A DNA stretch of 62,940 bases, counting the filler, from Licmophora abbreviata (lineage: Eukaryota): assembly GCA_900291995.1 (NCBI GenBank). It is 16 parts of 16 records of this genome, joined end to end, with 100 filler letters (N's around TTAATTAATTAA, not from the genome) between each part and the next. Parts side by side here need not be neighbours in the genome. Positions count along the whole stretch, not along the records: positions 33,509 to 38,122 come from OLMU01002059.1; positions 38,223 to 45,297 come from OLMU01002060.1; 14 more parts are not named here. One strand, written 5' to 3'. Within the stretch, counting starts at the first letter, position 1; every line of letters starts with the position of its first letter. The notes under the pieces were generated by a model that was given only the letters and a program-made list of their open reading frames with translations, was not told the DNA's origin and did not search any database. Made by a program: the position numbers and the translations under genes. Positions 9,706-61,221 of the stretch are shown one piece after another.

Positions 9706-10092
9706 AATAAACGATCTTTCTGCGGTGCTCTTTCATNNNNNNNNNNNNNNNNNNNNNNNNNNNNNNNNNNNNNNNNNNNNTTAATTAATTAANNNNNNNN
9801 NNNNNNNNNNNNNNNNNNNNNNNNNNNNNNNNNNNNAAATAAACTTCCTAATACGATCTTTCTGCGGTGCTCTTTCATGCAAAAATATAAATTATCTAGC
9901 CATGTCGTCTCATACGGCGTCCTCCATTAGTTTTCGATGGCGATTTCCAAAACCGCCAACTTGACCTTTCGGTACAACGTAGTAGACCACAATCCATGAA
10001 CAATTCTTTACTTATCCTCCGACGCGGAGCTTCTCTCAAACACACTGTCACAAACAACTAAAAATAGCGCACATCGCACAAGCAGAGCTAGC

Positions 10093-12057
10093 CTACCCTT
10101 CCTCAGGGCGACGAACCGTGCTCTCACCCTGTTTCCGCTCCGAAGCCAAAGGAGTGGGTGCTTGCTTCGTCGCCGCAGGTAACGGCGAAGAAGTAACATG
10201 ACTCTGATCGATCGAGACAATAAATGGGTGATTCAGCGCCTCGGTAGCCTTGAGTCTCTCTTTGGGGTCGAATGTTAGCATCTTATAAACGAGATCCACA
10301 AACAGTTCGTAGTTCCGGGGCGAGTTGCCAGTCTCGCTTGGCGGGTGCTTCTTTTTCCGAGTCGTATCCGCGCCAATCACCTCCGTGAGAGCTGAAATTG
10401 GATCTGTACTGGGAACGATCTTCTGTTTAGAAGGCGATGACCGTGATGTCGACGAGGCTGTTGCTGGAGTCTGGCGCACTGCCCACTCGTCAACGCCCGC
10501 TTCCGACTGTACCCGTTCAAAGAACTGCAGCCGCTGCGTGTCATTCGACTGATCCACCATTCGTGACGGAACCATACCCAGCATCTTTGAGTGACAAGCA
10601 AAGTCGGAGAATGCCGAGCGTGAGTTTCGGTTGTCCATGCTGACACCAGCGACAGTACACGACGGCAGAAAAATACACACCTTCACAATTTTTTGCATCT
10701 GGTCAAACTGATCTGCGCCGGAGAACAAGGGCTCTCCGGTATGCATCTCAACAAGAATGCAGCCCAGGCTCCACATGTCAATCGCGACGCTATACGGCAA
10801 TCCCAACATGACTTCAGGCGACCGATAGAACCGACTCTGAATGTACGAGTACATTCTCTTGTTCGACCGACACGACGAGCCGAAGTCGATCACTTTCACG
10901 CCGCTCCTCTTTGGATGCCGTAGCAAAATATTCTCGGGTTTCAAATCACAATGAATAATGTCAACGTCCTCTCGGGCTAGGAACGACAACGCCTTGAGAA
11001 TCTGCTTCGCAAACTTTCGGATCAGATTCAATGACACACCCCCGAACTGCGTATTCTTCAACAACTCGTACAAATTCAATGATAACATCTCAAACACTAG
11101 ACACTGATGATTTCGATATATGAAATGAGACAACAAACGAACTGGAGACGAGAATCGAGTAGAGATTGGATTGAATTGAACACGGTCAGCCACGAGTTCT
11201 CGAGCATGGGATTGCATGCACATCACTAGCACGCAAGGAATGAAACGCACCAATATTGTTTTGGTCTTCCGGATCCTGGTCCTGCAAATGCGACAGCAAC
11301 TCAATCTCCGTCTTTGCCTGCATCAAGAAGGGTTTCTTGGATTTGATAATTTTGATGGCCACGTCTTTGTTCGTCTCCGAATCATGCGCTCGGACAACCT
11401 GGCCAAACGACCCTTTCCCTATTCTCTCTTTGATGACGTATCTACCATAAAACATCTCTCCGCTCGTCACAATGTAATCAAAGTTCTCGTCGTCCCATCC
11501 ATTGTTGTTCGCGCCCTGTCCTTTTGCCTTCTGCGCAGCCCTCGCGGCCCTCCGTGCATCGCGTTCCTCATAGTAAACCTTATTGATGTGCTTATACGTN
11601 NNNNNNNNNNNNNNNNNNNNNNNNNNNNNNNNNNNNNNNNNNNTTAATTAATTAANNNNNNNNNNNNNNNNNNNNNNNNNNNNNNNNNNNNNNNNNNNNT
11701 CATTGTTCCCTCAGCTGCTGCCATTTCAGGATGTTGTCGGATTGGCGGATGTGGCTGTTGTTGGTGATGCATCATGACAGGGTTTCCCGGCGGCATATCT
11801 CCTCCTCCTGGGAACGGCGGTGCCGGTCTCGGTACCGCTGCTCCCGCTACAAAGTGTATCGGCTGAGACGCTGGAAAAGCTGGAATCTGCTGCTGTGACT
11901 GCTGCTGTTGTTGTTGTATCCACTGCTGCTGCTGCTGCTGCTGCTGTTGAGGTACCCCTGGATGTCGACTTGACGCCTTTGCAGCCTGAGTGGTCTGACT
12001 GAATGTCTTCTGCTGAGGCAGAAACTGTCTATCTTGTTCGTCTTCGAGATGATCCAT
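10093..12057 (-). CDS. DYRK1: DYRK1/minibrain-type dual-specificity kinase with polyQ N-terminus; introns 11142-11250 and 10585-10680; spans a gap
   Basis: DH box NNGWDDENFDY, IGKGSFGQV, HCDLKPEN, DFGSSC, activation loop YSYIQSRFYRSPE. Confidence 0.93.
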
Positions 12058-13133
12058 GACAGTATCCCAACAATTCGTTTCTCCCAGAGACCTCTATGCA
12101 TACACTATGTTAGGCCACCAGCCGATCCAGTCGTTCTAGAACCGCGCCAGACCCGTTTGTTGTTGATGTGTAGAATGACCAACGGGCACACACGCTGCCG
12201 CCGCCCTTGCTACAAAGAAGAAGTCAGCGACGCTCGTGTTTTTCTGTTTCTCGGAAAAACAGAAATCAATCTGCGCTCTTCCAGCGCTCACCACGACTTT
12301 CTATTCGTGAATGGGGGTGCCACACAAGGCACTCTCGTCGTCGTCTGTGGTGTTCTTTCTCCCAGTCGCGTCGTGTTGCGTGACGCCGGAAGAAGTCGAT
12401 CGCTCAAAACACGAAAGACACGCGAGGCAACGCTTGCGTGCCGGCAAGGGCCTTCATGAACGAAGACTTGTGCGATGCTTGCGTTTTCTCTGTCACTATT
12501 TCTCTCGAATATACAGTTATTCGCAACCAAATATCGTGGAAATATACATTTGCTGGAAGACTCTATGTCGTTTAGGGAGATGCGAGTCGTGGGACTTCGT
12601 AGAGGTTCTACGTGGAGCATCGCAGATAACGCCCCGGCCTACTCGCCTGGCTCGAAAGCGGATGACGTACGTACCGTCGGGTGAGCCCGCGTCTCATCTC
12701 CACTCTCCGCTCATAACCTTCTTACTACTCCAGTTTTAAATCCACTCTCCGACGACGGCGCAAACCATCATGAGGGTGACCATGATATGGATGGCTGATC
12801 CCTCATTACACCAAACGATCACCGATTTTCATGATTTCCGTCTCCCAGACATGTAGATTGGTTTCAGTAGGAAGAAGACAAAAGCTAAAACTATGGTGGT
12901 CGTCGTCAATGATGGAGCAATCCTTCACTTCGTCACCGACTCGTCGCACGAACACTAGAAAGCGGCGGCGTCCCTCGTCATTGAAACCGACCAAGAAGGA
13001 TTTCTTGCGATCGACGACAGAATCCAATGGACTNNNNNNNNNNNNNNNNNNNNNNNNNNNNNNNNNNNNNNNNNNNNTTAATTAATTAANNNNNNNNNNN
13101 NNNNNNNNNNNNNNNNNNNNNNNNNNNNNNNNN

Positions 13134-18886: not shown

Positions 18887-21800
18887 TCAGACCTTCTGCT
18901 GGGCAGCCTGCGACACTGACGGGTCCGCTAAGATAAAGAACTTAGCGCCGTTGAGTTCGATGCCATGAATATCCCCTTGCCAAGTCTTTTCATTGTCCAT
19001 GAGCGTATCCAGAGCCATCTTCGCTTGTGAAGATGTCAACTGAGCAGCGGCGTCTGCTTTCATACCAAGAAGACTTTCGCCGACCTTGTCTGATACAATT
19101 GCATCGATCACCCCCGATTCGTCTTCTATGTGTACCGCAAACTGGAAGATAGCTGAGCCAGGCGTAGGACCAGCAATACATAAGTTTTTCAACCCACTGG
19201 TTCCTTCTCCGGCACCTGGGATCGTATCGGTAATGCGAAACTTCACCGCAATCGAACTTGGAACTGGCTCGGAGATGCAACGAGCGATACAGAGATCCAA
19301 AGATGGAGCGGGCTGCGCGTCCCGTGTCGGCACACTGGCAGCAATGGACATGGCCGCGTCTGTAGCAAGACCTGGCATTCCCCCCTCAAGTGGCAACACG
19401 CCGCTCGCGGGATTAAAGGGGTCCTTCTTTTTCACACGAGAATCATGCTCTTCCAACATTACTCGGATCTCAAAGGTCTGTTTTGGCAACGGTGTCAGCC
19501 ATGCCTTGGAAGAGACGTTCAAACCTGACGGCAAATGTCGGAGAAAGAGTGTTAGCACGCGTATGCCCTAGGTTGCAGAAAAGTTCCAGCCACAACTTAC
19601 ATCTCAGTCCGTTGAACAACTTTCCTTCGTGCACATTTCGAAGTCGAACGAAGCTTCCAGGTTTTACCACTTTAGAGACCAGGTCCCACTGAGCATCTTC
19701 CCATATGGCAACGTTCGCAACACGACCACATAACGACTTGGGAGGTTCAAGCGCAGTGTGCACCGAAGAGTCTTGCGCTGACTCGAAACCAGAATCTGCC
19801 GGCTCGACCTTCCACCCATTGATCACATCAGCAATCGACATTACAGCTTCTGCAGACGGGTCGCCCTTCCTTGTGGCCTCTGCAGCTGACGCAGAAGAGA
19901 CTGGAAGACTACGAGACGATAGAGAAATGAAGGGTGTGAGACACACGACGTGTTGCGAGCCGCATACACGTAGACAACTCACAAGTCTGATTCAGGTGGC
20001 CCTGTCCCATCCCACACGCGAAGGAACGCAAGAGGCGACATGCCATTTCGCAACTCCGGCGGGACAGGAAGAACAGCAGAGACGAGCACAGTAAAATCGC
20101 CTCGAGCCATTTCGGTAAAAGCTTGGCTTTGTTCCTGTCGAGACAAGTCCATCAGCTTGAAGCGCTGTGCAAACTTCATCGTAGGATGGGACTTGAGTCG
20201 TTCTTTCGCCCATTTCCATAGCTCCGATGATAGCAGAACGTCCTGTGGTTCAAGCGTAACCTCCTGTCTGGCGGTCGGGATGAAGTCCCAGTTGTCCTGG
20301 ACGTCTAGCGATGCATCTTGTGTCGGATCTTTTGGTCGAGAAACGACGTACGAGGACGCCCTACGGCCCAACAGCTGAACCTGCTCCTTCCACAGCTAGG
20401 GTACGGACGACGAGACGAGACGAATTTAGTGTCGACCCGAAAGAGGAAGAAAAACACACGCCTTTACTCGACTTACTTGCACTTGAACACGATGAAGACG
20501 GAGGATGTCACCAGCTTGCCTTAAATTTGGGAGGCTTTGGCGTTCCTTGCAGAATATGTTGAGGACAATGGACGCAACTGTGTCGTCACTAGAGGCACTC
20601 GACACATCCGGCAGAGGAAGGGTTTCGTCCACTAGTGAGACGCTAAGCATCCAATCGCCCTTCTTGGTCAGAAAGGGCGATCCAAAACCGAGTACCGTGG
20701 CGTAGATGTTTGCCTGGAGATGCGTCTCCCCTGCACCCGAAGCCTGGAGATCGCCTACCAGCTTGCTTAGCTCATTCTGCGATGGATGTCGTACAATGAG
20801 TGAGATAGTTTGTCAAGCGAACGAGCGGTGAGCTAGCCTGGAACTCCGACGTACCAATTTGTGATAGACCACGGCAGTCTTGGGACGTTTGGTGCGTGGT
20901 GAAGCCGGTTGCTTATTTTCGCCGTCCTCTTTGGCGAGAGCGCTTCTCTTCTTCCCAGTTTCCGAGTCGTCCACGTTTCTCGTCTCTACTTCAGGCCGCG
21001 TCGCAGTGGCGGTTGTCAGCGGAGTATGTTCTCCTTGTTGCTCCCCTTCACGTGATTCCCGTGGTGTCGGACTTTTCTTTTTGCTAGTCATTGGAGACGC
21101 TCGCTCCTTATCGACCACAATCGGACCCCCATCGTCGTCGTCGTCATGATCCCAAGCCTCGTACTTCTCTTGGACTTTGAGCTGCTGTTGAAGGTCACTC
21201 GTTTCCTTTATTTGGATTCTCCCTTGACGAATCGACTCGGGCGTCAAATCAATTTCTTGCATGACCTCCCCCTCCGTAGTGGATGCTTGTTCAAGTGGCA
21301 GTATCGCTGCAGTCACAACGAGTCGCTGCGGGTCGTGAAAGTACACGCGCGCCATGCTTCCATCGCCAGTGTCCATCTTCATCGTACTCTTGTCGCCAAT
21401 GCAGACACAAAAAGGTACCAACGTTTCCTCGTCGAACCAGTTCTTGGGGGGTGCGGGATGATGCATTTGGCAGGCACGTGCTGCAGTGAGAGTAGACCGN
21501 NNNNNNNNNNNNNNNNNNNNNNNNNNNNNNNNNNNNNNNNNNNTTAATTAATTAANNNNNNNNNNNNNNNNNNNNNNNNNNNNNNNNNNNNNNNNNNNNA
21601 TCAGTCGTCATCGTCGTCGACGACGGAGTGGGCTGCCATTCCGCCCGTCTGATCTGACGAAGCCCCCAGACCTTCTCCAAGCGACAAATGCTCAAAGAAA
21701 GATCTTGAGTGTACATGCTAAGCTGCGACACAGTCGTGGTGACATGCGTGGTCTCGGACACGTGAGGAATAGACTTGGCCAAAATCTTCTTGTGAGGAGC

Positions 21801-22535: not shown

Positions 22536-25500
22536 ATGACGAATTCTATATCGCAAGACGACGGCACCAGTGAGAACTACCAGACAATGGGAGTCTCTAC
22601 AGAACCTCTTCTGTCCTCTCCTCCCACTCTACAGCAGCTGGATGTCGACGAAGAAAGCCCAGCGACGACAAGATCAAGAAGAGCGGATGACGACGATGGG
22701 GAACACAATGAGTCGTACTACTACGGCGGCTTCTCGTCCTTTTTCTGGGCTGCATCACCCACATCGAAGAGACCATCGTCTCCCTTGCAGTCGTCGGAGA
22801 ACGAGAGATCCTATCCCATGATCGTGGAGGCGTGGGAGTCGATCCTTTGCCGGATCCGGGTCCCTCTTTTGCTGTTCGTGGTCCTTGTGGTGTGGCCCCT
22901 CGGCGCCGTATGTTTCCGACATTTGACATCGGCAACAGACAGCACCTTTCACCCTATTCCGACATCGCTGTCTGGACAGGCCCAGACCGCCTTCGCTGAA
23001 TCGTATGCCGACGACTGGCAGGATCCTATGCATCCGAGCCTTTCGATCGTCTTGGAGAATCCCGACAGTGCTAGCAACGACACTCTGGTGGACCCGCGCT
23101 CGCCGCTCTACGAGCCCGCCTTTCATTTCTCCACCGAGCTTCCCATCTTCCTCAATCAAACCTGCTGGAAGCTGCAAGACGGTACTGCCCGCTGTTCCTC
23201 CAACGAGACATGGACGAAAGTCACGTCGTATTTTTCCCTACTCGACGATCAGCTCACGTATCTGGCCAAGTCGGCAGTAGCCAACGAAGGTCGCATGACG
23301 GTCGTGCAAGTGCAGTATCTCCTTCCATCGAACTCTACGCATACTCGTGCTCGAGTCGCGCAGCTCATGGAAGCCATTGAAGTGTTCGCGGCCCGCTATG
23401 AGGATACTCCCCTCTCCATCACGTTCACAGGCCTCAAGTGGTTCCAGTCGGATCTCATAAAATCGACGCAGTCGGATATGCGCAAGATGGATGCTCTCGT
23501 CTTGCCCTTGGCATTGTTCTTGCTCGGGGTTGTCTTGAAACAAGCACGCGCTGCCTATGTGTGGATACTGCCGCTCTGCACGCTGCTCACGACTATTTGC
23601 GCCTGGTCCATGGTAATGCGAGTGGTGGCGTCTAATATGCAAATTACACAATTCACGCCATCCATCATGATGTCTGTTACCTTGGGCATGGGAATGGACT
23701 ATTCGCTCTTTTTGTTGTCCCGCTACTTGGAAGAAATGACAACGACGACGACGCGATCATCAAGAACCAAGCAGCAGGCGATACGGCACATGCTCTATCA
23801 CGGCGGACATGTTCTGTTGTTGAGCGGACTGACGCTCATGTGCACGTTTCTCGGCCTTTGTTTCTTGCCGCTTGCCATGCTCAAGAGTGTTGGTATCGGA
23901 GCGGCTGTGGCTATAGGCTGTGCTCTCTTTGTTCAGTTGACTCTGGTCCCAGCTGTGTTGCATACACGCTTTGGAGACTTGATAGTCGAAGGTTCGGCGG
24001 TACAGCACAGAGAGACAGAGAGGGACGGGGATGACGCCGACGATTCCTTTCTGGAACGGGCTGCCTTAAGTCAAGCGGACGCTGCCGACCCTCGATCTGG
24101 AAGAAATTGTCTCGTCACTTGCTACATCGGGAAAAATCCATCATTATATTTTTGGTCATTGTCCAGCTGATTCTGCCGGTGGCACTCTACGCGACCAGCT
24201 TCAATTCCTCCTTGTCGTTCGACTTGATGTTACCGTCGACGAGCCCCAGCCTGGATGCATTCCATCGACTCGGAGCTCAGCTCGGATGGGGCCGTCTGAC
24301 TCCGTACAGGATTCTTTTTGACGGTCGTGCCGCAGGCATCAAGATGGACTCCGCGGAAGGCTTTGACGTCATGCACCGCGTCCTGGACGAGCTCATTGCC
24401 ATTGAAGGCCATGAAGACAAGGGCATCACTCATATTGCGACTGGAATGGACGAAATTCAAGGTCTGACGGATCATCTCATGGATACACTGGGTCTTTCGG
24501 CAAGATCAAAGATGAAAGATGGCGTTCTCTGCGATCAGGACATGATCGAACGACCTACGATGTACGGTGGCATTTCTATCCTCAAAAACGCTCGTATTCC
24601 GCACTCGCTCTTCGTTTCCGCAAAGTATTNNNNNNNNNNNNNNNNNNNNNNNNNNNNNNNNNNNNNNNNNNNNTTAATTAATTAANNNNNNNNNNNNNNN
24701 NNNNNNNNNNNNNNNNNNNNNNNNNNNNNCTCGTATTCCGCACTCGCTCTTCGTTTCCGCAAAGTATTGTGCCAAGGTCGCCCCTCACTGCCCCGTCGAA
24801 ACGCTGCATCTCATTGATTACGTCGACCAGGTATCTACCTCTAAGGATCGCTACGCCACGTTTGTAACTGCAACGCTGGGAACGAATCCCTTTTCCAGCG
24901 AAGGCCTTAGCTGGCTCGAAGCGGCACGGTCTACACTGAAGCGCCTCGAGGACGGTGGGGCACTGGGAGACATCAAGGTCTACTTGGAAGGCACTGCGGC
25001 TATTGAATATGATGCAGTAGACGCTGTTTACTCTGCGTTTCCGTTGGTAATTGGTATCACCATGGCGGTTGTCTTTATCTTGATGGGAGTCTTCTTCAGG
25101 AGTCTTTTGGCACCGCTCCGTAGCGTGGTAAGCATTAGCTTGACTCTGAGCTTTGTCTTTGGCTGGTTGGTCCTCGTCTATCAGCACGGCATCCTCGACT
25201 GGACCGGGATTCAAAAGTGGACTTCGACCGGCGATGAGATTTCTTGGTTGGTCCCGGTCATGGCGTTCAGCATCATTGTGGGGCTTGCGCTCGACTACGA
25301 CGTGTTTCTGATAAGTCGCATTCTTGAGTATCGCACGGACGAAGGATACGATCACAAGAGTTCCATTGCGGCTGGGCTGGATTCAACTGGAAGTATTATT
25401 ACGGCGGCAGGACTCATTATGGGAGTGGCCTTTGGTGGCTTGATGTTCTCATCCTCCCCCGTCCTCTACCAGTGGTCGTTCCTCTTGACGACGGCCGTCC

Positions 25501-26325: not shown

Positions 26326-26464
26326 NNNNNNNNNNNNNNNNNNNNNNNNNNNNNNNNNNNNNNNNNNNNTTAATTAATTAANNNNNNNNNNNNNNNNNNN
26401 NNNNNNNNNNNNNNNNNNNNNNNNNATTCCCTTGACTAGAAGATAGAAATTACTCTCTGCCAAG

Positions 26465-26973: not shown

Positions 26974-27614
26974 AACAGTGGCTTCAGAGAACACGAAATG
27001 CCTTCGATCATTATTATATGTGTAGCTTTTGGATTGACGTGGTACGAGTAACAGCTCTCAGACTCAGCAAAACAGGATTGACATTCGCTCCACTAGAGTC
27101 TAGCGCTAGGAGAATCAATGAGGCATCGCTCGCTTCGTCACTCAGTACGGCTAACGATTTTCTTCCATCGTATCTATGCAGAAAGAAAGACTGGACGTAG
27201 CGGGATCAGTGCAAGAGCAGGAACGCAGCTGCTGCCTCGTCTATCATACAGAAGTAAAAGTTGGATATTTAGAACCATGATTTCGCTCCTGCATGTTATT
27301 CGCCAAAGTTTTGTACCAGGTACCTGGCATTATTACGCTAGAGGATGATGATACCAAATGTAATTCCAGGTACCGGCAGGAGCACATTCATGTGCTCCTG
27401 GGTACCGGTTATAACACTCATACGAGGTAAAATGCAGNNNNNNNNNNNNNNNNNNNNNNNNNNNNNNNNNNNNNNNNNNNNTTAATTAATTAANNNNNNN
27501 NNNNNNNNNNNNNNNNNNNNNNNNNNNNNNNNNNNNNCTCGTAAGCTCGCACAGCAGAAGCCACTTGATTTTTCCGCGTTTCGTCTTCGCGCGACTGATC
27601 AGTTGATTGAGAGT

Positions 27615-33408: not shown

Positions 33409-33553
33409 NNNNNNNNNNNNNNNNNNNNNNNNNNNNNNNNNNNNNNNNNNNNTTAATTAATTAANNNNNNNNNNNNNNNNNNNNNNNNNNNNNNNNNNNN
33501 NNNNNNNNCAGTATCTTTGCCATTCCAACCGCTTCATTTCTTTCGTCGGCACC

Positions 33554-35770: not shown

Positions 35771-37222
35771 ATGACGATTCTCCCGCACAACCAACGGCCT
35801 TCCCTCTTGGTCCAAGGCCTATCTTCCTCCTCTCCCTCCAAGCCTATCGAACGAGTCGTCTTGATTGGCGGCGGACATGCGCACGCTCAGGTCATTCGCG
35901 CTCTGAACCAAAAGAGTCGACCGAGCCACGTTCACGTCACCCTCATCGACGTCCAGAAAGACGGGTCGTACAGTGGCATGGTCCCTGGATGTATAGCCAG
36001 GGCATATTCAGCAGAGCAGACACTCTTGCATCTAGAACCGCTTGCTGAATGGGCAGGAATTGACTTTGTTCAGGATAAGGTCGTCGACATGGATCTCGAA
36101 CGAAATTGTGTCTACGTGGAGCACAGCGACACGCCGATTCCGTTTGATGTTTGCAGCATCGATATTGGGAGTACGTCGCGAGGCGTTGAGGAGACACCTG
36201 GAGCCAAAGTGTATAGCATTCCGACGCGGCCTATTTCCGAGTTGGTGCGACGTATTGAAGAAGCCGAAGCAGACATAGCTCCGGACAAAGAAGAGCATGT
36301 CGTTGTGGTTGGTGGTGGCGCAGCGGGAGTGGAACTGTCCATGAGCATCAAGGGGCGATGGGGCCCACTGACGGACAATCTGAAAGTAACATTGTTGGAT
36401 TCAGGAACGGAGCTTCTGCCGAGCGAGTCGCCTGCCTGTCGCAAAGCCACGCGCGAGGTCGTCGCGGAACGGGGAATTCGAGTTCGCCACAGGTGTCAAG
36501 TCGAGCGCGTCACGTCGGACGCTGTGTGTCTGACGAATGGTGAGGAGATTCCCTACTCGCATTGTATTTGGGCTGGTGGTGCGGCGGCTCACCCACTGGC
36601 CTACAAACTGCAGAAGAAGGGATTGGCCGTCAATGAACGTGGGTGGTTTCGAGTCAACCGGAATCTTCAGAGTCTGTCGCATCCGCGTATCTTTGCGGCT
36701 GGTGACTGTTCCAGCATGGAAGGTCTCGCGACTAGACCACCACCGAAGGCCGGAGTCTATGCCGTACGTGCCGGGCCTATACTGATTGAGAACCTGACGG
36801 CGTTTCTACAGCACAAGTCACTTCGAAAATACACACCACAAGATGACTTCCTGAAACTACTTGTATGTGGAGATGGGACAGCCATGGGCTTCCGATTTGG
36901 CATTCCCTTTCGTGGGAAGTGGGTTTTTGACTTGAAAGATTCCATTGATACTCAGTTTATGAGTCTCTTTCGACGAGAAAACTTGCCCGAACTGGAAGAG
37001 GGACAATCGTACGACACGTCGCAGTACGACGAAGTAAAACAACCTGCAGAGTGGGAACGCATGACTCCTGAAAAGGCGGCCGATCTGTTGAGCTGCCCGG
37101 ACGATGACGTGGACTATCGAGACGCCCAGCATTTGCTGCGCGACATGACGGCCGATCAACGATATAGGAACGAAGTTCTGTCGATGGTAGATGCGCACTC
37201 GTTTGTGTCCGTTGTGGGGTAG
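35771..37222 (+). CDS. FAD-dependent pyridine nucleotide-disulfide oxidoreductase of the type found N-terminal to SelD, here stand-alone
   Basis: VVLIGGGHAH, YSGMVPG, VVGGGAAGVEL, IFAAGDC, PKAGVYAVRAGP, YTPQDDFLKLL, WVFDLKDSIDTQFM. Confidence 0.85.
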   Translation: MTILPHNQRPSLLVQGLSSSSPSKPIERVVLIGGGHAHAQVIRALNQKSRPSHVHVTLIDVQKDGSYSGMVPGCIARAYSAEQTLLHLEPLAEWAGIDFVQDKVVDMDLERNCVYVEHSDTPIPFDVCSIDIGSTSRGVEETPGAKVYSIPTRPISELVRRIEEAEADIAPDKEEHVVVVGGGAAGVELSMSIKGRWGPLTDNLKVTLLDSGTELLPSESPACRKATREVVAERGIRVRHRCQVERVTSDAVCLTNGEEIPYSHCIWAGGAAAHPLAYKLQKKGLAVNERGWFRVNRNLQSLSHPRIFAAGDCSSMEGLATRPPPKAGVYAVRAGPILIENLTAFLQHKSLRKYTPQDDFLKLLVCGDGTAMGFRFGIPFRGKWVFDLKDSIDTQFMSLFRRENLPELEEGQSYDTSQYDEVKQPAEWERMTPEKAADLLSCPDDDVDYRDAQHLLRDMTADQRYRNEVLSMVDAHSFVSVVG

Positions 37223-37828: not shown

Positions 37829-40800
37829 ATGTCGTTTCGTCGTCCTATTGGCGCACAGGCCGACTTGAAAGAGCTGGAATACGTCTCGGCTCTTCATCAG
37901 ACAGGCTTGCCCTTGCTTCGCGACAATGGGACGGTATCTTCGATCGATATCCAAAGGTTCTTAAAATCCCGAATTGGGATTGAGGCAGATCACTCTCTTC
38001 ACTGCCTTCGCATCGTGCGCGGCCTTGGAGGCGGGGTCTTGGGGGATGAAGCTATTGAGCAAATCTTGAATTCTCAGGATTCTACGGGCGCCAAGTCGCC
38101 CGAAGAAGCGATGAAGAAAGAANNNNNNNNNNNNNNNNNNNNNNNNNNNNNNNNNNNNNNNNNNNNTTAATTAATTAANNNNNNNNNNNNNNNNNNNNNN
38201 NNNNNNNNNNNNNNNNNNNNNNGCCAAGAAGCAGGATGACGTCGAGGCCCAGGAGAAAGAGACGAAGGAGAAGAGGCTGAAAAACCGAACGAGGACGAAA
38301 CATTCGAAGAATATCTTGACTTGGTGCAGCTTCTTGCAGCTCTCTTGATCCCAACGCTCGCTCGCGCGGGAAAGGAATGGCGTGGCGAACATGGCGAAGG
38401 CAACGAGGAAGATTCGCGTGAGGGAGTTTACGAAGAAGAAGAAGGCCAAAAGCAAAGTGTCTTTGCTAGGATTGAGGCATGGGACAAGGCTCGAAGGGAA
38501 GTGAAGAGTCAGGAACTCTACGAGTCGCTTCGTCCCAAACCAGAAAGCCTGTTGAAGGACTCCTTGACGGTACTGCTTCATTCAACGACAGCACAAGTCG
38601 ACGGCGAGTGTAAATCCAGTTTGAACTACCCGGCTGTTACGCCAGCACTGGTACAGGAACTGTTGGAAAGCAACGGGGAGTATGAAAGAGCCGCCGACAC
38701 TGCTCTCGTCGAGAAGATGGTAGCGGCGGCTTCGTCGAAGTCTGGACTGCTCGATGAGGAAGCGTTTGTCAACGCGATCACGTCGGACGTGAGTGAGTAT
38801 CCGATTGGAAGCGAAGATCAACTCACGACAATGTTTTACGACGTTTTCGGTTTTGAAAGCTTCGAGGAAAGGAAAAGGCAGCTGGAGGACGAATCGAATA
38901 TCGAAGGTGTGGCCAAGGACTCGAATGGGATTGACGATGTCACTGATATGGGAGACAACACAAAAGAGAAGGAAGGGGTCCCATCTTATCGATTGGAGAT
39001 TGGCAATGTTCTGTCTCCGATCGATTTCTCGATTGATGCGCATTCCTCGTCTGTACTGATGATTGGGACATGGGTTTTCTTTGTCTTCACGGTCATCCTG
39101 TACGCGACACTCTTCCAGAGCATGGATGCCCTTCAAAAGCAATGCGATTCCAAAACATTCTCGTGCCAGATCCGCAGTACAATTATCGTTTGGATGGTTT
39201 TCGCTTGTATTTTTGTCGTGGTGGGATACGTCATGATCATCCCGCTAAGTTTCGGTAACAATCCTAGGCGTCGGTCGCCTCGGAGCACTGCTTTTTCCTT
39301 GTTCCTTTGCGCGGTGTATACGTGGATGCCATTTGTGGCCATCACGCTGTATCGAGACCAGCGAGAACAGCCTTACAACGGGATGGAAGAAGCCGTAAGC
39401 GGGCCTTACTTCTCGAACTCGATGAATCTTGTTCTTGCGATTGGATGTCTACTCATGGCAATATACTTCCATCAGTTTGTGCTTTCATTGTTGGGCAACA
39501 GACGAATTCGAGAGTCGGAGCTTCTGAACAGGCTATTCGCGACTTCGACAGTCCGAGGAGTGGCCAGGACGAAAAAAGCGGCTACCCGGAAAATCAATAC
39601 AATGCTACAGAATGCGCAGTGTCTTCATTCGTCGGTGTCTAGTCGTTTGTCGTCGGCATCCTTGAATACGAGAAGCTCCTTGCGCGCGAAGAATGGATCG
39701 GAAGAGGCAATGGTGAACTACGTTCTTCGCGGTGAATCATATGAAAACTGTGGCGGGTTACTTTGGACCTGGAAGAGGATTTTCAATGGATCGCTCTTCG
39801 ATACGGAAGGTGTTTGGTTCTGCTCTCGTTTGCTCGTCTTTCAGTTCTGTCAGCTCGTGGTCGCCTTGCTTCTAAGCTACATTGTATTCACGTTTGTCGA
39901 AACGGTTGCCGTGGAGGCCGATGCTGCCACCAAGGATTTGGAAGAAAATCACCCTAATGCACCCGATTGGGTCAAAGATATTGTTCCAACTGGTGCCCAG
40001 GCACGAGGTGCCTTGTATCCGGCAGCGGTGGTCGCTGTTCTCGTGATGATCACTCTCATTCTCATTTATCTCCCGAGCTATACCAGCACTACTATTATGT
40101 ATCGAACGGGGGTGATTCCATCTCTCAAGTCTCATTACTTCACCAAGTATCGAACGAACGTTGACCTTGTAAGTGCTCCCTCGGGTACCATTATCAAAGT
40201 TGTTTGTTTATGTTCTTAATCTGCTCACGTTTTGCACCGGTACGTAGGTATACGGAAACATCGGAAATGCAATCTTCGCCCTTCTGGGTTCAGCGGGGCT
40301 TTTTTGGGCGTTAACCGCGCTTGTGCTGTTCTTGTTTCTGTGGGAGTTTTCTAGAAATTTCATGATTCTGGTGACTGCTTGGGGTAAGACTCATTTTTGT
40401 CGGTGTGCCTTTCGGTGCAGTCTGAATATTGCCTGACATGTTGTCATCTGGGCCAATTGCTGACACAGGAATCGGCCTAACGATCACAATTGTTCTGAAG
40501 ATGATGCTGACCAAGTTATGCCGCAAGAAATTCTTTGCCGGGTTCTACAGGACCCGTCCCGGCGCCGCTAATTTGTCGACGCTCGCTCTTGAATGTTGGT
40601 TCATAGGACTAGGTGGCGGTGTCTTGGTAGGGCGTTTCACTCAGTTTATTCTCGCAGCATGCTTCTGGGTAGGCCGCACGGACGTCCCGTTCCTTAGCGA
40701 GGACGTTTCTGTAATGGGATATGCCTTTGACTATGTGCCCACCAACTTCGTCAAGGACCTCCTGGTTCATGATGCCCATCACCATCCCTATCTGGAACGC

Positions 40801-41097
40801 CTCCTCACCATGTACCTCTTGAAGTTGAAGAACGATTCGTTCTGTACCGACGCAGGTGCTTGTTGGCGTCAACTGCTTGTCGTTTCGCTGATGCCCTGGA
40901 TGATGAAGAGCCGGGTGTTTAGCGACAAGCGTTTGGCTGACGCCATGAAGGCTTTCACCGACCGACGCGTCGAGTTGGAAGAAGAAAGCCGCCCGAGAGG
41001 ATTCAAGGAGGAAGTCATGAGTGGTCTCAACGATATGGCGGAGCAGGTTGTTGATCGACGTCCAGAGGAAAATGAGAGCGCCGATGAAGACAATTAG
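37829..41097 (+). CDS. Large multi-pass membrane protein with STRA6/RBP-receptor-like C-terminus; introns 40169-40247 and 40384-40468; spans a gap
   Basis: Many TM helices; both splices keep the frame; C-terminal R-x12-G-x2-D-x3-L, D-x17-HP and W-x9-P-x5-R pattern. Confidence 0.7.
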
Positions 41098-41201: not shown

Positions 41202-42176
41202 CTAGTGAAAAGGGCATTTCGATGTCTTTGGGGACGTTGAAAGGGCGTCCCGGTGGCCATTCGCTTTCGTGACATCCAGCTCGCGACTGTTGGTCGGTGC
41301 CATCAACTTAGTCTTGTCACTGACATTTTCCAGCGAGGTCGAGATGTCTTTTGACATTTGCTTGTTGATGGCCCCACCAAACCTCGGCGGAGGCGCAAAC
41401 GGACAGAAACGTGGCACAGTACCCAGATACTGACGATATTCTGGACCAATCGAGTTCTCTAGATCGGGCTCCTCTAGCAAGCGGACGGCCAACACAATAT
41501 ATAGTGTGTCAAAGGTAGCCAACAGCAACTTCGGTGTTGTCAGGATGGGAGACGCCCATAGTCCCGTGAGCATACCAGTCATGATGGGGTGAGAGACCAG
41601 TGTGTAATTCCAACGAACAGTGATCCCGTCTTCATTCTTGGCTGCCGATAAGCCTATGGCTCGGTTAATGTCGACTCCCAGGCCTTGAGTCAAACCAGTA
41701 AGGGAGAAATGATCCAAGGCAAACGTTGCTGTCACAAGAAACAAGAATCCCGTGCCAAAGAGTGCAAGGGTTGCGCAGGCGATCCAAGTTTGCTCGATTA
41801 CATCATAAAGGATGGGACCTTCGAAGTTTCGCCAATAGTGCATTTGAAGGTGAAGCAACACTGCTGACTGCAAGATGTAGAATGGGCGTTCCCAATTGTG
41901 CGGCAGAGACATCCAATGCTTAACGGCTGGGCGAGCCAGGGCCGAGTGAGGGACGCAGAAGGCAGCCATCAAGAATATATCTACCCAAATAGCATCCCAG
42001 AAGGAGTAAGTGGATGCTGATCCAATGCTGTATGGGTCGACGCTCTGCAACAGAGACGGGAGAACCTCCCGCGGCAACATGAACACGAAGTATCCGCACA
42101 GTACCACGAAGAAGTAGAGGTAGGAGCCGGTTGAGAAGACTGCCGACAAGGCTGTCGCTTGATGAGAGTTCGTCAT
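41202..42176 (-). CDS. MddA/nurim (ICMT/PEMT superfamily) integral-membrane methyltransferase-like protein
   Basis: F..PHSALARP..K, ERPFYILQS, TFALDHFSLTGLTQ, Y.LVSHPIMTG...LWASP, EEPDL...GPEYRQY...VP. Confidence 0.8.
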   Translation of the reverse strand: MTNSHQATALSAVFSTGSYLYFFVVLCGYFVFMLPREVLPSLLQSVDPYSIGSASTYSFWDAIWVDIFLMAAFCVPHSALARPAVKHWMSLPHNWERPFYILQSAVLLHLQMHYWRNFEGPILYDVIEQTWIACATLALFGTGFLFLVTATFALDHFSLTGLTQGLGVDINRAIGLSAAKNEDGITVRWNYTLVSHPIMTGMLTGLWASPILTTPKLLLATFDTLYIVLAVRLLEEPDLENSIGPEYRQYLGTVPRFCPFAPPPRFGGAINKQMSKDISTSLENVSDKTKLMAPTNSRELDVTKANGHRDALSTSPKTSKCPFH

Positions 42177-42817
42177 GGGTGAGATGCTGTTACCTGTGAC
42201 TAGACTACAAAGTGCAATTCAAGAGAGGGGGTTTCTATGATTGTAGCTACCATTCCTGAATTTGTGAGAGTTTCTAAAGGCAAAAAGACATGTCATCAGC
42301 GTGATGACCATCGCGTCTGTGTACACGGCGAACAGGATCGAACAGTTCGCTGCGGTTTGCTACGACGTCTCTGTGCGCGGCGAACAGGCTAGAACAGACG
42401 AAAAGACTTGTATGCCGTGATGGTGATGGCATGTGACGTGCAACCTTCGCGCTTGCATGCAGGTTTTTATCGGCTCGTCCGGCGCGCGACGATAATCGGG
42501 ACTGACAAGATGTTGTTAAGAGAGTGGTTTGTGTTTTCGACGCCGGACAGACAAACTCAGATCTTGTTGGTATGGCGCCATACTCGTACCTCGTATCCGT
42601 ATATAGTATATACAAGTAATGGAGGGTGCACTGGTGGTGCAGTTTTTCTGGGTGTGTGCCTTTTGCGACTTTGTGCCTACAACGATGGTCGATGCGACGG
42701 CACAAGGAACACAGCTTTTAGCATCGCAACGGCGTGCTCATAACCACCCCTCAACTAGAACCAAACCATATCGTGACAACCTGGGCCTACAATTCTTCGA
42801 AAGTATTTTCATAGAAG

Positions 42818-44529: not shown

Positions 44530-45584
44530 ATGAGACGACTGCTGGGACTAAAAAAGAAGCGTCGGTTGACGCCTCGTGGTAAACCCCCCGGTGACACGTA
44601 CAACTATGCAATGCACGAATATCGTCAGACCGTGGCCCCGGAAACTTCCAATGATGCTGGTACGATTTCCGAGTTTGCCGATTACAAGTACGGTAATTCG
44701 GGGACTGGAGTAGAACTGGGCCATGCTGAAGAGCCGACATATCAGAAAATGGGCGGCGACTCGTCAGTACGAGACAATCGAGCCTCGGGGCTGCCTCCGT
44801 ATCCAGCCAATAGCACATCGAGTTCCGCGCAGCCCCCAATGAAACCTCAGCATGCCGCCTCTCAGCCGTCACTCTCGGAACGACAAACATCAAGGAGGCG
44901 AGCAGACGAAGGCTCGAAACGTCGTCCATTGCTTAGTGAACCGGAAATGCCCGACACGACGTATGAAGAGGAATACGGGGATGCTTACGTGGGCGGGACC
45001 ATCAAATATGTGTATCCGTCCGGCTATCAGTCAATGCGACCCCGCGGTGGGCCTTGGAAATTGAGCCTTGTTATTTGTGTATTATTTACGTGGCTGTCTG
45101 TCTTCATTGTGGGACATTGTTCGGATCGGGTAGCGGAAGATCAGTCGTACCAGGCGAATGAAATTGACGATGACGCGCTCGTAATTGAAACGCGATGGTG
45201 TGGCTCACGGCCCCTATATATTATGTGGGTCATGAGCATGCTAGTCACTGGCTTGGCGATGGCGTACTTGCTCGGTAATTGGCTACATCAAAGTCCGNNN
45301 NNNNNNNNNNNNNNNNNNNNNNNNNNNNNNNNNNNNNNNNNTTAATTAATTAANNNNNNNNNNNNNNNNNNNNNNNNNNNNNNNNNNNNNNNNNNNNGGG
45401 CAAGAGTGACTACTATGTGCGACTGGGCGATGATCCTCATGACGAAGGTGGCTCGGTGGCATCCCAGTCGTCCAGTTTGCAACAGTATCAGCGAACCATC
45501 TATCAGTCGGATGGGACACCTGCCTTTTGGGGAGGACACATTTATCGACCAACCCAAGCTGCTGTCGCCGTCACCAGCCGCTGA
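44530..45584 (+). CDS. Hypothetical two-TM membrane protein; spans a gap
   Basis: 282-aa ORF with two TM helices continues after the gap (GKSDYYV...FWGGHIYRPTQAAVAVTSR*). Confidence 0.65.
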
Positions 45585-47813: not shown

Positions 47814-49258
47814 TCATACCTCGCAGTTCTCCTTTCCACATTCCGCATCCGGTGGTTCCGCGGTGGCGGCCAAGAAAAGCGCCGCAAGGAAAATACCGCC
47901 ACCGACGAGTCCTTGAGTTCCCACGGTCTCACCGAGAAACAAACAGCTCATTATGGCCGCCCACAGCGGTTGCGAGGCATACAATGTCTGTGCTCGTGTG
48001 GGGCCAATGGCTTGCTGGCCACCTACTTGAAGAAATGGGACAATAGCATTTACAGCCAATCCACTCCATACGATAAGTAGACCCAATGTTGTTCCGTTCT
48101 GCGCAAAATCGTTTGTTGATAGAAAGCTCGAAGTCTCTTCAAACCCGAAGCCAAGCAAAAGTAATATCGACAACAGGGCTTGTGTTGCAATCTTACTGGT
48201 GATGAGCTGCTTTGGCGGCACTAATTTGCCCCATTTGAAAAGCCGCAGGTCGTACGTCGCATAGAATCCTGCCGCCACGATACATAGAGCATCGCCGATT
48301 GCTCCACTGCTCATGGCGTCGTCCAAAGTTGCTACAGAGCTCGCATCCTGCGTGAATAGTCCTACTCCCGCCAGTGCCAATCCAATCGAAAACATGATTC
48401 GTTTGGGAATCGGTACGCCCATAAGGCCTTGTGCCACAGGAACAATGAGCGTAGTGAGTTGAATCAGAAAGNNNNNNNNNNNNNNNNNNNNNNNNNNNNN
48501 NNNNNNNNNNNNNNNTTAATTAATTAANNNNNNNNNNNNNNNNNNNNNNNNNNNNNNNNNNNNNNNNNNNNACCAAAGAACTTCCAGAGTCCCAACTCCA
48601 GACCAGCTCGAGTGGCTTGTGCCCCGGCCTCTTGTTCAAGAACTCCCGACTCTTTCTGATTCTGAAGTAGCGATCTCGGCAGCGGAATAATGGAATCCAA
48701 AAACGGACCTCCCACAACAAGTCCCAATAACGCCACCCCACTCACGGCAGCATTCAACAGCAGAACAGGTGGGGCCATCGTCATGGCTGCGTCTGGAGTG
48801 GACAGTGCCGCGTGCATGACAGGTGACATAGAGGCAAACACCAGGGTGATCAATCCAACGGTGACCAAGCCTCTTCGGTATTCTTGTTCGGCATAGGAGG
48901 GGGCATCCACCCTTGCGCTACCGGCCGTCGTTAGGGAAGTTACTGGTGCCGTCGTGACGAGCTGACGCTGATAGAGCAGATCTGGGGCAGCTGATGGGGA
49001 AAGCGTTCTTTTCACCTCTTCTAGCGCTATCTGATCCTCCGCAAGGCTTCGTTCCGAAAGGTTCAGGCACTGAAATTTTTTGCGTGCAGATTGAATGTCG
49101 CTGGCACTGGATCGGTGCACGAGGCGCCGACAAGCTGTTGGCGTGAACGCATTGGCTGCAATACCTGACGATGATGATAGAGACGCAACGTATGTAGCAA
49201 TTAGGCAACTCCTCCTCTTGAATGACTTTCGGCTGTGCTTTTTCGTTGATTTAATCAT
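47814..49258 (-). CDS. EamA/DMT-family transporter, probably plastid-targeted; spans a gap
   Basis: ANA-FTP signal/transit junction; AGLELGLW, FLIQLTTLIVP, GDALC, QVGGQ...PTRAQTLYASQPLWAA....FLGE. Confidence 0.85.
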
Positions 49259-54469: not shown

Positions 54470-55030
54470 GGTGTTGAGGTCTCTGCAGTCTTGTGTCACG
54501 GCAAACTGTTTCTACAAATAATGACAGATACAAAGTGTGTGTGACACGAGAGAATTGTTCTGTGTGCCNNNNNNNNNNNNNNNNNNNNNNNNNNNNNNNN
54601 NNNNNNNNNNNNTTAATTAATTAANNNNNNNNNNNNNNNNNNNNNNNNNNNNNNNNNNNNNNNNNNNNGTTTTGGCCGATCTTTATAGAGTATACAGCTA
54701 TTTAGTAAGATTAATTTATAAATACATTTGTCGTTTAATAAAATGTAATTATGTGCGACTCCGTTGTCCTTGGGAATTTTATTCGGTACTCGCAACAGAC
54801 ATTTTGATATATATGTCCATGAGGAGTTTGTCTCCCAAAGAAAGACTCCGACTGTTGTTCAAATTTGTTTCACTCCCAAAAATACATAACAGCATTGCTG
54901 ATCAAGCCGAGACGGCGCGCTGATGATCGATGCGATAACGCAAACGAAAAAGCAAAAAGAGACTTTGGAACAAGGTATAAGTCATCATATCATCACTGGG
55001 CTGCATCATTGTCAAGCACTGCGTATCATC

Positions 55031-58361: not shown

Positions 58362-59807
58362 CTATAGTCGGCTTGTAGCTGGTGGAGGATGCATGGAAAG
58401 AATGGTCTGGGTCAGCTCCATGACGGTCGGGAGCAGCGAAGCTACCCTGCTGGCAATGGCGCTACTCGCAACTCCAGCTTTTGCTCGCTGAGCCACTCCT
58501 TGCACAATGACACAGTTCTTGAAAAAGAGAAACGCCAAGTAGAATCCTCTCCAATCCATGGCGACCTCTTGAGAGATGAATGGGTTGAGCTCACAGTACT
58601 GTTTCACGAGCTGTCGCCAAGTCGGAATGCCCGTGCCAGTCAATGTCATGCCTAGAGGCGGAGACAACAAGACGGTTGGTTAGAGCACGAGCCTCTCTTC
58701 TTTCATCGACATATTATCCAATTAGTCCTCACCTGCTAAACCAGCAATACCCACATCTTGCTGTCGTGGCATAAAGTATACCATGCTCAAGTTGGCCAGA
58801 TCGCATAGAGGATCTCCAATTGTACTCAACTCCCAATCAAGGACGGCAATGACTTTCGCTTTGGTGGGATGAAACACCATATTGTCTACCTTGAAATCCC
58901 CGTGAAGCAACGATACGTAGTCGGGACACTGCGGTGCAACGCGGGCGAGCTGCGAAGCAATCATGGGGAACTCGTCTGGTACAGCGCTCCCCAATTCCGA
59001 TTGCTTCTTGCTGACTACCAAGAGCCGTTCAATCTGGCGTTTCACAAAGTTCCCTTCCGTACCGTATCCCTCTAAACCAACCTGGCGATAGTCTACTCGA
59101 TGTAAGTTGGACAAAGTCCGTACAATGTCGCGATACGCATCAGCTCTCTGAGCCGCCGTCATTCCAGGAAGAGACGGGTCAGTAAAGATGCGTCCTTTGA
59201 CAAACTCCATGAGATAAAACTCAGCTCCCAAAACACTCTTGTCCTTGCAGTAGGCATAAACTCGCGGTACCGGCACTTGGCGACTTCTCAGATGCGCCTG
59301 TCGATTGTGTCGTTCCAGTGCCTTCAAAACGCGAAACTCGCGGTGCAATGCATGAGCCGAGGCGTGGGCCACTTTGGAAGGCTTCTTGCGTAGGACTAGA
59401 TTCAAGGTATCCTCATCTTGGAACTGAAGCTGTATTCTATATGTAGGATTCGACTGTCCGAATCCAAACTGTCGCACCAGCATGTGCTGCCGCAGCGCGG
59501 GTGCATCAACAAGCGAGCTTTGGTTTACTGTGTCTGAAAAGAGCGACCGAATTGCGGGCTGTCTCGCCATCCATTCTGCCAGCGATTTGACATCTAAAGT
59601 NNNNNNNNNNNNNNNNNNNNNNNNNNNNNNNNNNNNNNNNNNNNTTAATTAATTAANNNNNNNNNNNNNNNNNNNNNNNNNNNNNNNNNNNNNNNNNNNN
59701 GAAAAGAGCGACCGAATTGCGGGCTGTCTCGCCATCCATTCTGCCAGCGATTTGACATCTAAAGTTTGTCGCACCGGAGTAGTAGCCTGGCCCTGATCTC
59801 CTGACAT
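58362..59807 (-). CDS. Stand-alone ACAD10/ACAD11-type phosphotransferase (APH) with C-terminal PTS1; intron 58652-58732; spans a gap with overlapping flanks
   Basis: [60 protein letters not shown]; ends SRL*. Confidence 0.9.
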
Positions 59808-61024: not shown

Positions 61025-61221
61025 GGTGGGTATTACTTTCTGGTTGTGATGTGGGATGCAGTGGTGTGTTTGGATCGCGGTGCTGCGGCGTCGCTGACAC
61101 GCGGTCAGACGTGCCACACTGNNNNNNNNNNNNNNNNNNNNNNNNNNNNNNNNNNNNNNNNNNNNTTAATTAATTAANNNNNNNNNNNNNNNNNNNNNNN
61201 NNNNNNNNNNNNNNNNNNNNN

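Follow-up and report, generated by a model that had tools for sequence, protein, structure and literature searches.

A diatom membrane protein family with a predicted STRA6-like fold, represented by a three-exon gene of Licmophora abbreviata

In a stretch of 62,940 nucleotides from the diatom Licmophora abbreviata (GenBank assembly GCA_900291995.1), called the window below, a plus-strand gene encodes a polytopic membrane protein whose membrane domain very probably has a fold similar to that of STRA6, the vitamin A receptor of animals, as judged from structural models of two relatives. The product is a member of a large, unnamed family of protist proteins of about 1000 residues, and this family and STRA6 probably share a common ancestry, as very distant homologues. 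The reading that we favour, and that we consider reasonably likely, is that of a distant member of the STRA6 superfamily with a family-specific cytosolic N-terminal extension, to which transfer of a lipophilic molecule and its regulation would be ascribed.

The gene runs from an ATG at position 37829 to a TAG stop ending at 41097, in agreement with the preliminary description of this locus. That description was right about the coordinates and the C-terminal sequence blocks; it had overlooked two introns, a contig linker and an in-frame stop codon. The product comprises at least 995 residues, 98 upstream and 897 downstream of the linker at 38123-38222, which interrupts the coding sequence inside the acidic N-terminal region. 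The window contains 15 such identical linkers, the one at this position lying within the gene. A TGA (38237-38239) is found in frame just past it, and the total length and the frame across the linker are thus not fixed by the sequence. Both introns are short, with canonical GT...AG borders. The features are as follows.

37829..38122, plus strand: first part of exon 1, with the start codon, an N-terminal domain (conserved, about 70 residues long) and the onset of the acidic linker, without signal peptide (relative P0001, 20/23 rows of alignment A4)
38123..38222, no strand: contig linker within the coding sequence, N44-TTAATTAATTAA-N44
38240..39037, plus strand: exon 1 continued, acidic region and conserved soluble middle domain, probably cytosolic (D+E 62, K+R 28, pI 4.3 over 265 residues)
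39038..39496, plus strand: membrane helices 1-4 by hydropathy, forming the N-terminal membrane domain, with a conserved cysteine pair in the helix 1-2 loop
39497..39808, plus strand: basic loop (K+R 17) and conserved amphipathic helix K..AA..K......NA, probably cytosolic (helix 353-384 of model 2)
39809..40168, plus strand: last stretch of exon 1, encoding membrane helices 5 and 6 (hydropathy, P0003 alignment)
40169..40247, plus strand: intron 1, GTAAGT...AG, 79 bases (gapless P0003 alignment over the junction)
40248..40383, plus strand: exon 2, membrane helix 7 and start of helix 8 (hydropathy, P0003 alignment)
40384..40468, plus strand: intron 2, GTAAGA...AG, 85 bases, splitting a Gly codon (gapless P0003 alignment over the junction)
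40469..41097, plus strand: exon 3 and stop, completing helix 8, then a weakly hydrophobic helix, the three blocks and a charged tail (hydropathy, family alignment)
40573-40674, plus strand: weakly hydrophobic helix in exon 3, with conserved E41, GLGGG and R55 (exon-3 numbering)
40633-40695, plus strand: block 1, in the last exon
40729-40788, plus strand: block 2, in the last exon
40852..40914, plus strand: block 3, a helix with the pattern W-x9-P-x5-R, also seen in zebrafish STRA6 CaMBP2 (comparison by eye; family conservation)

The spliced product could be aligned with a protein of Attheya (P0003, 1048 aa) from residue 148 to residue 1025, in the same order, with 47% identity over 908 columns and no gap at either splice junction. 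The N-terminal exon is also conserved, as seen with the relative P0001 and in 20 of the 23 rows of alignment A4; since the relatives have the same N-terminus, the first part of the exon belongs to this gene. A linker inside the coding sequence, followed by an in-frame TGA at 38237, could suggest a non-functional locus, either a pseudogene or an assembly chimera across the linker. This is hardly credible, because the sequences on either side of the linker align, in the correct order, with one and the same set of relatives, the 897 codons past it are open once the two canonical introns are removed, and all the family-conserved residues that were checked are present. The TGA itself lies just five codons from the linker, where the reading frame is not fixed. 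This diatom gene, with its three exons, looks intact and is interrupted by the assembly linker alone. A prokaryotic-type operon context was also considered and dismissed, the locus being eukaryotic with introns.

Among 25 homologues, the 10 that carry an organism name are all from diatoms, and a precomputed Pfam domain is found on none of the 25. A profile search over 1.84 billion representatives returned 2552 cluster representatives with E<=1e-3, a number that falls to 1910 with a cut-off of E<=1e-10 and to 892 with E<=1e-30; a homologue search using an alignment as query among proteins of 1475-4210 residues gave no match. Conservation was counted in a 102-row alignment that contains the window's own exons, with exon-3 numbering for the blocks. 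The three C-terminal blocks quoted in the preliminary description are all present in the last exon, and their pattern positions rank among the most conserved of the family: R55 (90/90), G68 (85/88), D71 (86/88), L75 (78/86) and D87 (85/86), then H105 (84/85), P106 (85/85), W132 (79/83), P142 (84/85) and R148 (76/82). Only F93 and L97, two of the 12 positions of the block patterns, are conserved below 85%. The charged residue E41, located like R55 within the membrane, is conserved in 90 of 94 rows, and a cysteine pair, C302 (67/69) and C309 (69/71), sits in the loop that joins helix 1 to helix 2.

As judged from sequence models, the protein is not placed in STRA6. The match to the Pfam RBP_receptor model (PF14752, gathering score 25 bits) that the preliminary description had proposed to look for failed to appear: none of the four pieces of the window matched, and among 112 distinct relatives a single one did so, below threshold (0/16, 1/48 and 0/49 by set). 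This relative, P0052, scored 13.6 bits (E 0.027), under the 25-bit cut-off, with its residues 1454-1595 aligned to profile positions 398-540 of 605 in matching order. The STRA6 structure 5sy1 was absent at E<=10 from PDB sequence searches with exon 3, with three family profiles and with P0052. In the ESM Atlas, searched by language-model features, PF14752 is assigned to 19 of the 30 clusters nearest to exon 3; the best score reaches 0.95 (222/256 features in common), at a recognition value of 1666, below the 2300 mark, where a high score is weak evidence. The first six membrane helices gave noise only, with a best score of 0.77 (Tmp39/TMEM117). One mainly diatom cluster (score 0.92, 208/256 features) has PF14752 on 52% of its 50 members. 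The family had been presented as unrecognised, which mostly holds, except for this automatic annotation.

A structural match to STRA6 had been set beforehand as a test of the preliminary proposal, and STRA6 was indeed retrieved at the top of 48,161 representative chains in the VIA structural search for the models of both relatives, which are 47% (P0003) and 35% (P0031) identical to the window protein. Model 1, of P0003, was built with 16 sequences (pLDDT 62.6). The first-ranked chain is 5sy1_B, with a Z of 10.8 and an rmsd of 5.8 over 372 aligned residues; the runner-up has a Z of 8.8 over 110 residues, and in Foldseek STRA6 comes at rank 13 with an E of 0.27. Model 2, of P0031, was built with 102 sequences including the window's exons (pLDDT 80.3, pTM 0.80). 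Again 5sy1_B is first, with a Z of 14.1, a value of about 14 being within reach of mostly helical models of no known kinship; the rmsd is 6.0 over 467 of 582 residues, and the runner-up has a Z of 10.2 over 111 residues. With Foldseek, 5sy1_A is the sole match to model 2 at E<=0.001 (E 9e-4, probability 1.00, 610 columns, TM 0.42/0.53, 0.53 by target length). The next match has an E of 0.07 and a TM-score of about 0.1, and every other TM-score is at most about 0.2. The preliminary description had also named a stronger match to some other, unrelated family as evidence that would go against it; none was found, the VIA runners-up spanning only about 110 residues. On STRA6, the relatives superpose with an rmsd of about 6 Å and 11-14% identity, including the region of membrane helices 1-4. 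The reading of a STRA6 fold is thus supported overall, on models of two relatives, keeping in mind that a common fold does not show a common function.

Hydropathy analysis reveals eight strongly hydrophobic helices and a weakly hydrophobic one, in line with the multi-spanning protein of about 1000 residues previously described. The N- and C-termini would both be cytosolic, since no signal peptide is read in the N-terminal sequence, the basic loops alternate as expected from such an orientation, and the cysteine pair of the first loop would lie on the non-cytosolic side. Plastid targeting was dismissed for want of an N-terminal signal peptide. By hydropathy and sequence, the predicted layout differs from that of STRA6, with its nine membrane helices, one horizontal intramembrane helix and external N-terminus. 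In STRA6 the intramembrane helix comes after the ninth helix, and the intramembrane helices of the two chains form the core of the homodimer. The weakly hydrophobic helix of the diatom protein, with its conserved E and R, may play the part of this horizontal helix, and the layout would then be in effect that of STRA6 minus its first helix, which would place the acidic extension of at least 360 residues in the cytosol. The loop between helices 5 and 6, equivalent in place to the RBP4-binding loop of STRA6, has 24 residues. A dimer prediction with two copies of P0031 residues 203-702, in which the alignment was not used, scored 0.14 against a mark of 0.32, which counts as 'no answer', neither for nor against.

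The large acidic N-terminal extension reported earlier is borne out: its 363 readable residues contain 76 D+E and 40 K+R, with a pI of 4.5. An extension of about 360-400 residues with two conserved domains is kept in divergent family members, and the soluble middle domain shows the motifs YLDLVQ...LIPT and GE.ERA...LDE.AF..ALTSD. A Pfam scan of 23 N-terminal fragments gave no meaningful match, and a PDB profile search with the extension nothing convincing. The idea of an EF-hand comes from two weak PDB matches, to a calmodulin chain (E 0.28) and to S100-A7 (E 1.1). EF-hand Pfam families matched neither the 23 N-terminal fragments nor full-length relatives, and the canonical 12-residue calcium-binding loop was not recognized on visual reading, neither position 1 nor position 3 of the loop being acidic.

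At the other end of the protein, the W-x9-P-x5-R pattern of block 3, which the preliminary description had aligned with STRA6, also occurs in the zebrafish STRA6 CaMBP2 peptide given in PMC7154012. An ungapped comparison by eye with this 27-residue peptide gives 8/27 identical residues, and 7/21 within the block. In the family alignment, 92-99% of the rows keep the W, P and R. In STRA6, calmodulin is tightly bound on the C-terminal helices, CaMBP2 being the main site. The structural superposition stops at STRA6 residue 574, which faces the helix of the models that immediately precedes block 3, and it therefore does not back the register of block 3 with CaMBP2. Calmodulin binding by the diatom protein is possible on these sequence grounds, with appreciable doubt.

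Two alternatives to the favoured reading have to be weighed. The resemblance to STRA6 could reflect chance or convergent packing of long membrane helices in an unrelated, novel polytopic family. Direct sequence tests indeed all fail or stay below threshold, helical models can reach a Z of about 14 through arrangement alone, and the number of strongly hydrophobic helices and the predicted topology are unlike those of STRA6. Nevertheless, STRA6 comes first for two models obtained from different sequences and alignments, and the match spans 64-80% of its chain in order, 2-4 Z units above the runners-up of about 110 residues. Foldseek likewise gives a probability of 1.00, with none of the other TM-scores above about 0.2. 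The sub-threshold Pfam match, in matching order, is an independent signal for the same family; the Atlas features also favour RBP_receptor, weakly by the tool's own measure, and W-x9-P-x5-R is common to both proteins at conserved positions. Convergence looks improbable in view of these concordant signals.

It could also be that the fold is STRA6-like and the function is different: a signalling receptor or scaffold with a cytosolic N-terminal output, or else a protein that handles lipids or forms a channel, no small lipophile being passed to the bilayer. Consistent with this, the conserved two-domain N-terminal extension of about 400 residues has no STRA6 counterpart, the conserved intramembrane charges (E41, 90/94; R55, 90/90) would fit a polar pathway as well, and a shared fold is no proof of a shared function. 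On the other hand, STRA6 is the sole solved structure with this fold among the matches listed, and it acts by passing its ligand along a lipophilic cleft; no sign of any specific alternative activity was found, and Pfam has no meaningful match in the 23 N-terminal fragments. We regard a different function as rather unlikely.

For the distant STRA6-superfamily member, a role as a transporter or receptor for a lipophilic ligand is deduced from the fold, and ligand transfer by analogy with STRA6 is a tentative but serious possibility. The lipophilic cleft would let a small hydrophobic molecule, such as a retinoid, an apocarotenoid or a sterol-like compound, move to or from the bilayer, with a binding partner or the water phase at the other end, and no energy source would be needed, as in STRA6. 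The conserved helices past the last membrane helix could form a regulatory module, one of them bearing the W-x9-P-x5-R of the STRA6 calmodulin-binding helix, and the family-specific N-terminal domain would supply extra control. The diatom protein would not serve as a receptor of retinol-binding protein; no RBP4 is known in diatoms. A more elaborate scenario, which we hold to be a long shot, would see the STRA6 fold as an old eukaryotic module for delivering lipophiles to membranes, expanded in diatoms into a large family. A degenerate EF-hand-like N-terminal domain would partly replace or join calmodulin, dock on the C-terminal helices and gate the cleft by Ca2+. The cargo could be a sterol, or else a retinoid or apocarotenoid such as the retinal used by diatom rhodopsins.

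STRA6 has been described as animal-specific (PMC5977736), and PMC7154012 states that no other transporter, channel or receptor resembles it in sequence. None of the papers retrieved in a literature search describes a protein resembling STRA6 in stramenopiles, diatoms included. From the models, the STRA6 fold would very likely also exist in a large uncharacterised diatom family. If true, thousands of diatom sequences would move the emergence of the fold well outside the animals. They would also provide very distant comparators, in which the residues held in common should mark the essentials of the STRA6 mechanism, and point to an unstudied route of hydrophobic small-molecule handling in algae. 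Diatoms account for a large share of marine primary production.

Among known systems, zebrafish STRA6 (5sy1; PF14752) is the closest counterpart considered. According to PMC7154012, PMC8951293, PMC12953553 and PMC12225734, STRA6 is a dimer with nine membrane helices and one intramembrane helix, a lipophilic cleft, a lateral window and bound calmodulin. The likeness lies in the fold of the membrane domain, followed in order over 372-467 residues on the models of the relatives, in a last helix that is long and embedded in the membrane, with several cytosolic helices after it, in the W-x9-P-x5-R of the main calmodulin-binding helix, and in the lack of a nucleotide-binding or other energy-coupling domain. 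In contrast, identity is 11-14% and the diatom protein is unrecognised by the Pfam model. STRA6 has its N-terminus outside and 9+1 helices, whereas the diatom protein would have an internal N-terminus and eight helices plus a weakly hydrophobic one; its conserved acidic cytosolic extension of at least 360 residues has no counterpart in STRA6.

The vertebrate STRA6L/RBPR2 is not known to have such an N-terminal extension. This second RBP4 receptor, set beside the diatom protein by description, resembles it as a divergent member of the same superfamily; it shares only about 20% with STRA6 according to the review PMC8951293, which indicates how far this family can drift in sequence. The Atlas clusters automatically annotated as 'Retinol binding protein receptor domain-containing protein', compared by their labels alone, lie closest to exon 3 in the feature search, and some or all of their members may represent C-terminal fragments of the family described here.

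Window sequence places a single gene on the + strand, at 37829-41097, with a spliced product (the window protein) encoded by three exons, the first of which is interrupted by a spacer:

37829, +: ATG start codon (sequence)
37829-40168, +: exon 1, interrupted at 38123-38222 (sequence)
40169-40247, +: intron 1, GTAAGT...AG, short and canonical
40384-40468, +: intron 2, GTAAGA...AG, short and canonical
41097, +: last base of the stop codon (sequence)

The interruption of exon 1 consists of 100 bases (44 N, TTAATTAATTAA, 44 N) and is one of 15 identical 100-base spacers of the form N44-TTAATTAATTAA-N44:

Spacers 1-8: 5668-5767, 9737-9836, 11600-11699, 13034-13133, 21500-21599, 24630-24729, 26326-26425, 27438-27537
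Spacers 9-15: 33409-33508, 38123-38222, 45298-45397, 48472-48571, 54569-54668, 59601-59700, 61122-61221

The window thus consists of short contigs strung together by linkers with stops in all frames, so that any gene crossing a spacer is incomplete. An in-frame TGA is found at 38237-38239, five codons past the linker, and is followed in the same frame by 643 open codons. For this reason neither the reading frame nor the true length can be read across the linker, which conceals a small intron, a shift of frame or a stretch of missing sequence. An alternative, Lys/Glu-rich frame continues directly 3' of the linker (38224-38239). Relatives begin with sequence matching the 98 residues ahead of the linker, which assigns both linker sides to one gene. 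Past the linker, the 897 residues of spliced product are collinear with residues 148-1025 of P0003, a relative from Attheya, at 47% identity over 908 columns, and neither splice junction falls at a gap. The upstream neighbour (35783-37219, +) is a pyridine nucleotide-disulphide oxidoreductase (Pyr_redox_2, E 5.6e-37). Downstream lies a convergent ORF of 338 residues (41205-42218, -), the translation of which looks hydrophobic and gave no Pfam match at E<=0.001.

The large exon, used in a word-indexed search, returned two truncated relatives, and exon 3 retrieved 25 among longer proteins, all labelled hypothetical or uncharacterised and none carrying a precomputed Pfam domain. All ten relatives with a named organism are from diatoms (Attheya, Fistulifera, two Nitzschia, Bacillariaceae sp., Entomoneis, Seminavis, Amphiprora, Epithemia, Odontella). 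Sixteen full-length members, used as a profile against 1.84 billion cluster representatives, yielded 2552 proteins at E<=1e-3, 1910 at E<=1e-10 and 892 at E<=1e-30. The best 150 of these 2552, all with E < 1e-88 and thus outside the distant tail, have a common build. From the N-terminus, they have a conserved domain (about 70 residues), an acidic linker that varies, a conserved soluble middle domain and a membrane half of four helices; after these come a basic loop containing an amphipathic helix, five further hydrophobic helices and, past the membrane, a conserved helix set. One subgroup (P0034-P0041, P0036, P0062, P0067 and others) carries an insert of 100-260 residues between the membrane halves.

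At the sequence level, the kinship with STRA6 proposed in the preliminary description was not recovered by the Pfam RBP_receptor model, PF14752, which matched none of four window pieces. Among 112 distinct relatives (0/16, 1/48 and 0/49), the lone match, to P0052, fell below threshold (E 0.027, 13.6 bits for a cut-off of 25). Residues 1454-1595 of P0052 pair in matching order with positions 398-540 of the 605 of PF14752, and this span is the counterpart of the last membrane helices of the window protein together with the first two of the three C-terminal motif blocks compared earlier with STRA6. As PF14752 was singled out in advance, a chance of about 1e-6 per model remains small even over 112 proteins, although E-values of membrane proteins are not very trustworthy. 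P0052 (1638 aa) is also longer at its N-terminus, by about 290 residues with weak matches to PH-like models (PH_TFIIH, E 0.015; bPH_3, E 0.057). The zebrafish STRA6 structure, 5sy1, was absent at E<=10 from PDB sequence searches with exon 3, the family profiles A1, A2 and A3, and P0052. In an ESM Atlas feature search with exon 3, PF14752 was present in 19 of the 30 nearest clusters (top score 0.95, 222 of 256 features in common), including a mainly diatom cluster with PF14752 on 52% of 50 members; the recognition value of 1666, below 2300, makes this weak evidence by the tool's own measure. The same search with the first six membrane helices gave noise only.

Folds were compared on models of two relatives. 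For P0003 (model 1, from 16 sequences; mean pLDDT 62.6, pTM 0.63), Foldseek gave nothing at E<=0.001; chain 5sy1_A came 13th by E-value (0.27) but led the rows shown in both probability (0.60) and TM-score. With an aligner independent of Foldseek, 5sy1_B headed the 48,161 representative chains, its residues 59-574 matching 388-945 of the model (372 residues aligned, rmsd 5.8, Z 10.8); four-helix bundles of about 110 residues came next, with Z of 8.8 or lower. P0031, a more divergent member (35% identical to the window protein), was modelled from a 102-row alignment that included the window's own exons (model 2; mean pLDDT 80.3, pTM 0.80, membrane domain mostly >85). STRA6 was then the sole Foldseek match at E<=0.001 (E 9e-4, probability 1.00; TM 0.42 by query and 0.53 by target length; 610 columns, 14% identity), the runner-up having E 0.07 and a TM-score of about 0.1. 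The second aligner again placed 5sy1_B first, with 467 of 582 residues aligned at rmsd 6.0 and a Z of 14.1, a value which, as the aligner warns (Z ~14), helical models may reach without kinship; its runner-up had Z 10.2 over 111 residues. STRA6 is thus the top structural match, as had been proposed, for P0003 with the second aligner and for P0031 with both methods, covering 64-80% of its chain in order and standing 2-4 Z units above partial matches. Two first ranks, this coverage, the Z margin and the agreement of Foldseek make a STRA6-like fold of the family's membrane domain, as modelled, well supported. Together with the sequence-level hints, the fold makes common ancestry with STRA6 the likelier reading.

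The three motif blocks do all lie in exon 3, as described, and of their 12 pattern positions, 10 reach a conservation of 85% or more in the 102-row alignment. Conservation of this kind is usual in true remote homologues, the argument for blocks 1 and 2 resting on the STRA6 sequence as quoted in the preliminary description. Block 3, compared by eye and ungapped with the 27-residue zebrafish calmodulin-binding peptide CaMBP2, as given in PMC7154012, has 8/27 identities, including W, P and R at the same spacing (W-x9-P-x5-R). Both superpositions end at STRA6 residue 574, inside this peptide, opposite the family helix that immediately precedes block 3 (P0031 701-719, P0003 929-943). This counts against the proposed register of block 3 on CaMBP2, although the aligner reports only where the aligned span begins and ends, and in monomer models the helices of the tail may be placed differently.

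The N-terminal extension is acidic, as initially noted (363 readable residues, D+E 76, K+R 40, pI 4.5), and searches with it gave neither a Pfam family, EF-hand included, nor a sequence relative in the PDB. Two of its conserved segments did match EF-hand proteins weakly in searches with family profiles, one a calmodulin chain (E 0.28) and the other S100-A7 (E 1.1). By eye, the cytosolic segments at 37829-38050 (..NGT.SS.D...FL.SR) and 38650-38830 (..SG.LDE.AF..ALTSD) resemble degenerate EF-hand loops, a likeness that is a lead only.

STRA6 has been termed animal-specific (PMC5977736) and devoid of sequence similarity to other proteins (PMC7154012). The literature search, with weak coverage of stramenopiles, found no paper on a diatom STRA6-like protein; to that extent the family is unrecognised, as first suggested, but automatic annotation in the ESM Atlas already tags some diatom sequences with PF14752.

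Hydropathy analysis reveals eight strongly hydrophobic helices and, after them, a long, weakly hydrophobic helix with conserved E41, GLGGG and R55 (exon-3 numbering). No signal peptide was detected in the window protein. Basic residues concentrate in alternate loops: helix 2 is followed by 4 within a stretch of 6 residues, helix 4 by 17, helix 6 by 4 and helix 8 by 5. A conserved cysteine pair in the helix 1-2 loop (39143-39166; C302 in 67/69 rows, C309 in 69/71) may form a non-cytosolic disulfide. Since these features fit N-in, C-in, we infer this topology, with a last weak helix that probably does not span the membrane. STRA6 itself is described, in reviews and an NMR paper, as a dimer, each protomer of which contains nine membrane helices plus one intramembrane helix, with a lipophilic cleft that has a lateral window to the bilayer, tightly bound calmodulin, and retinol transfer without energy source (PMC7154012, PMC8951293, PMC12953553, PMC12225734). 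By analogy, the window protein could pass a small hydrophobic molecule passively, and control of this transfer might come from its conserved cytosolic helices and N-terminal domains. Its last weak helix would resemble the horizontal intramembrane helix of STRA6, which we take to lie after helix 9, and the whole arrangement would be that of STRA6 minus its first helix.
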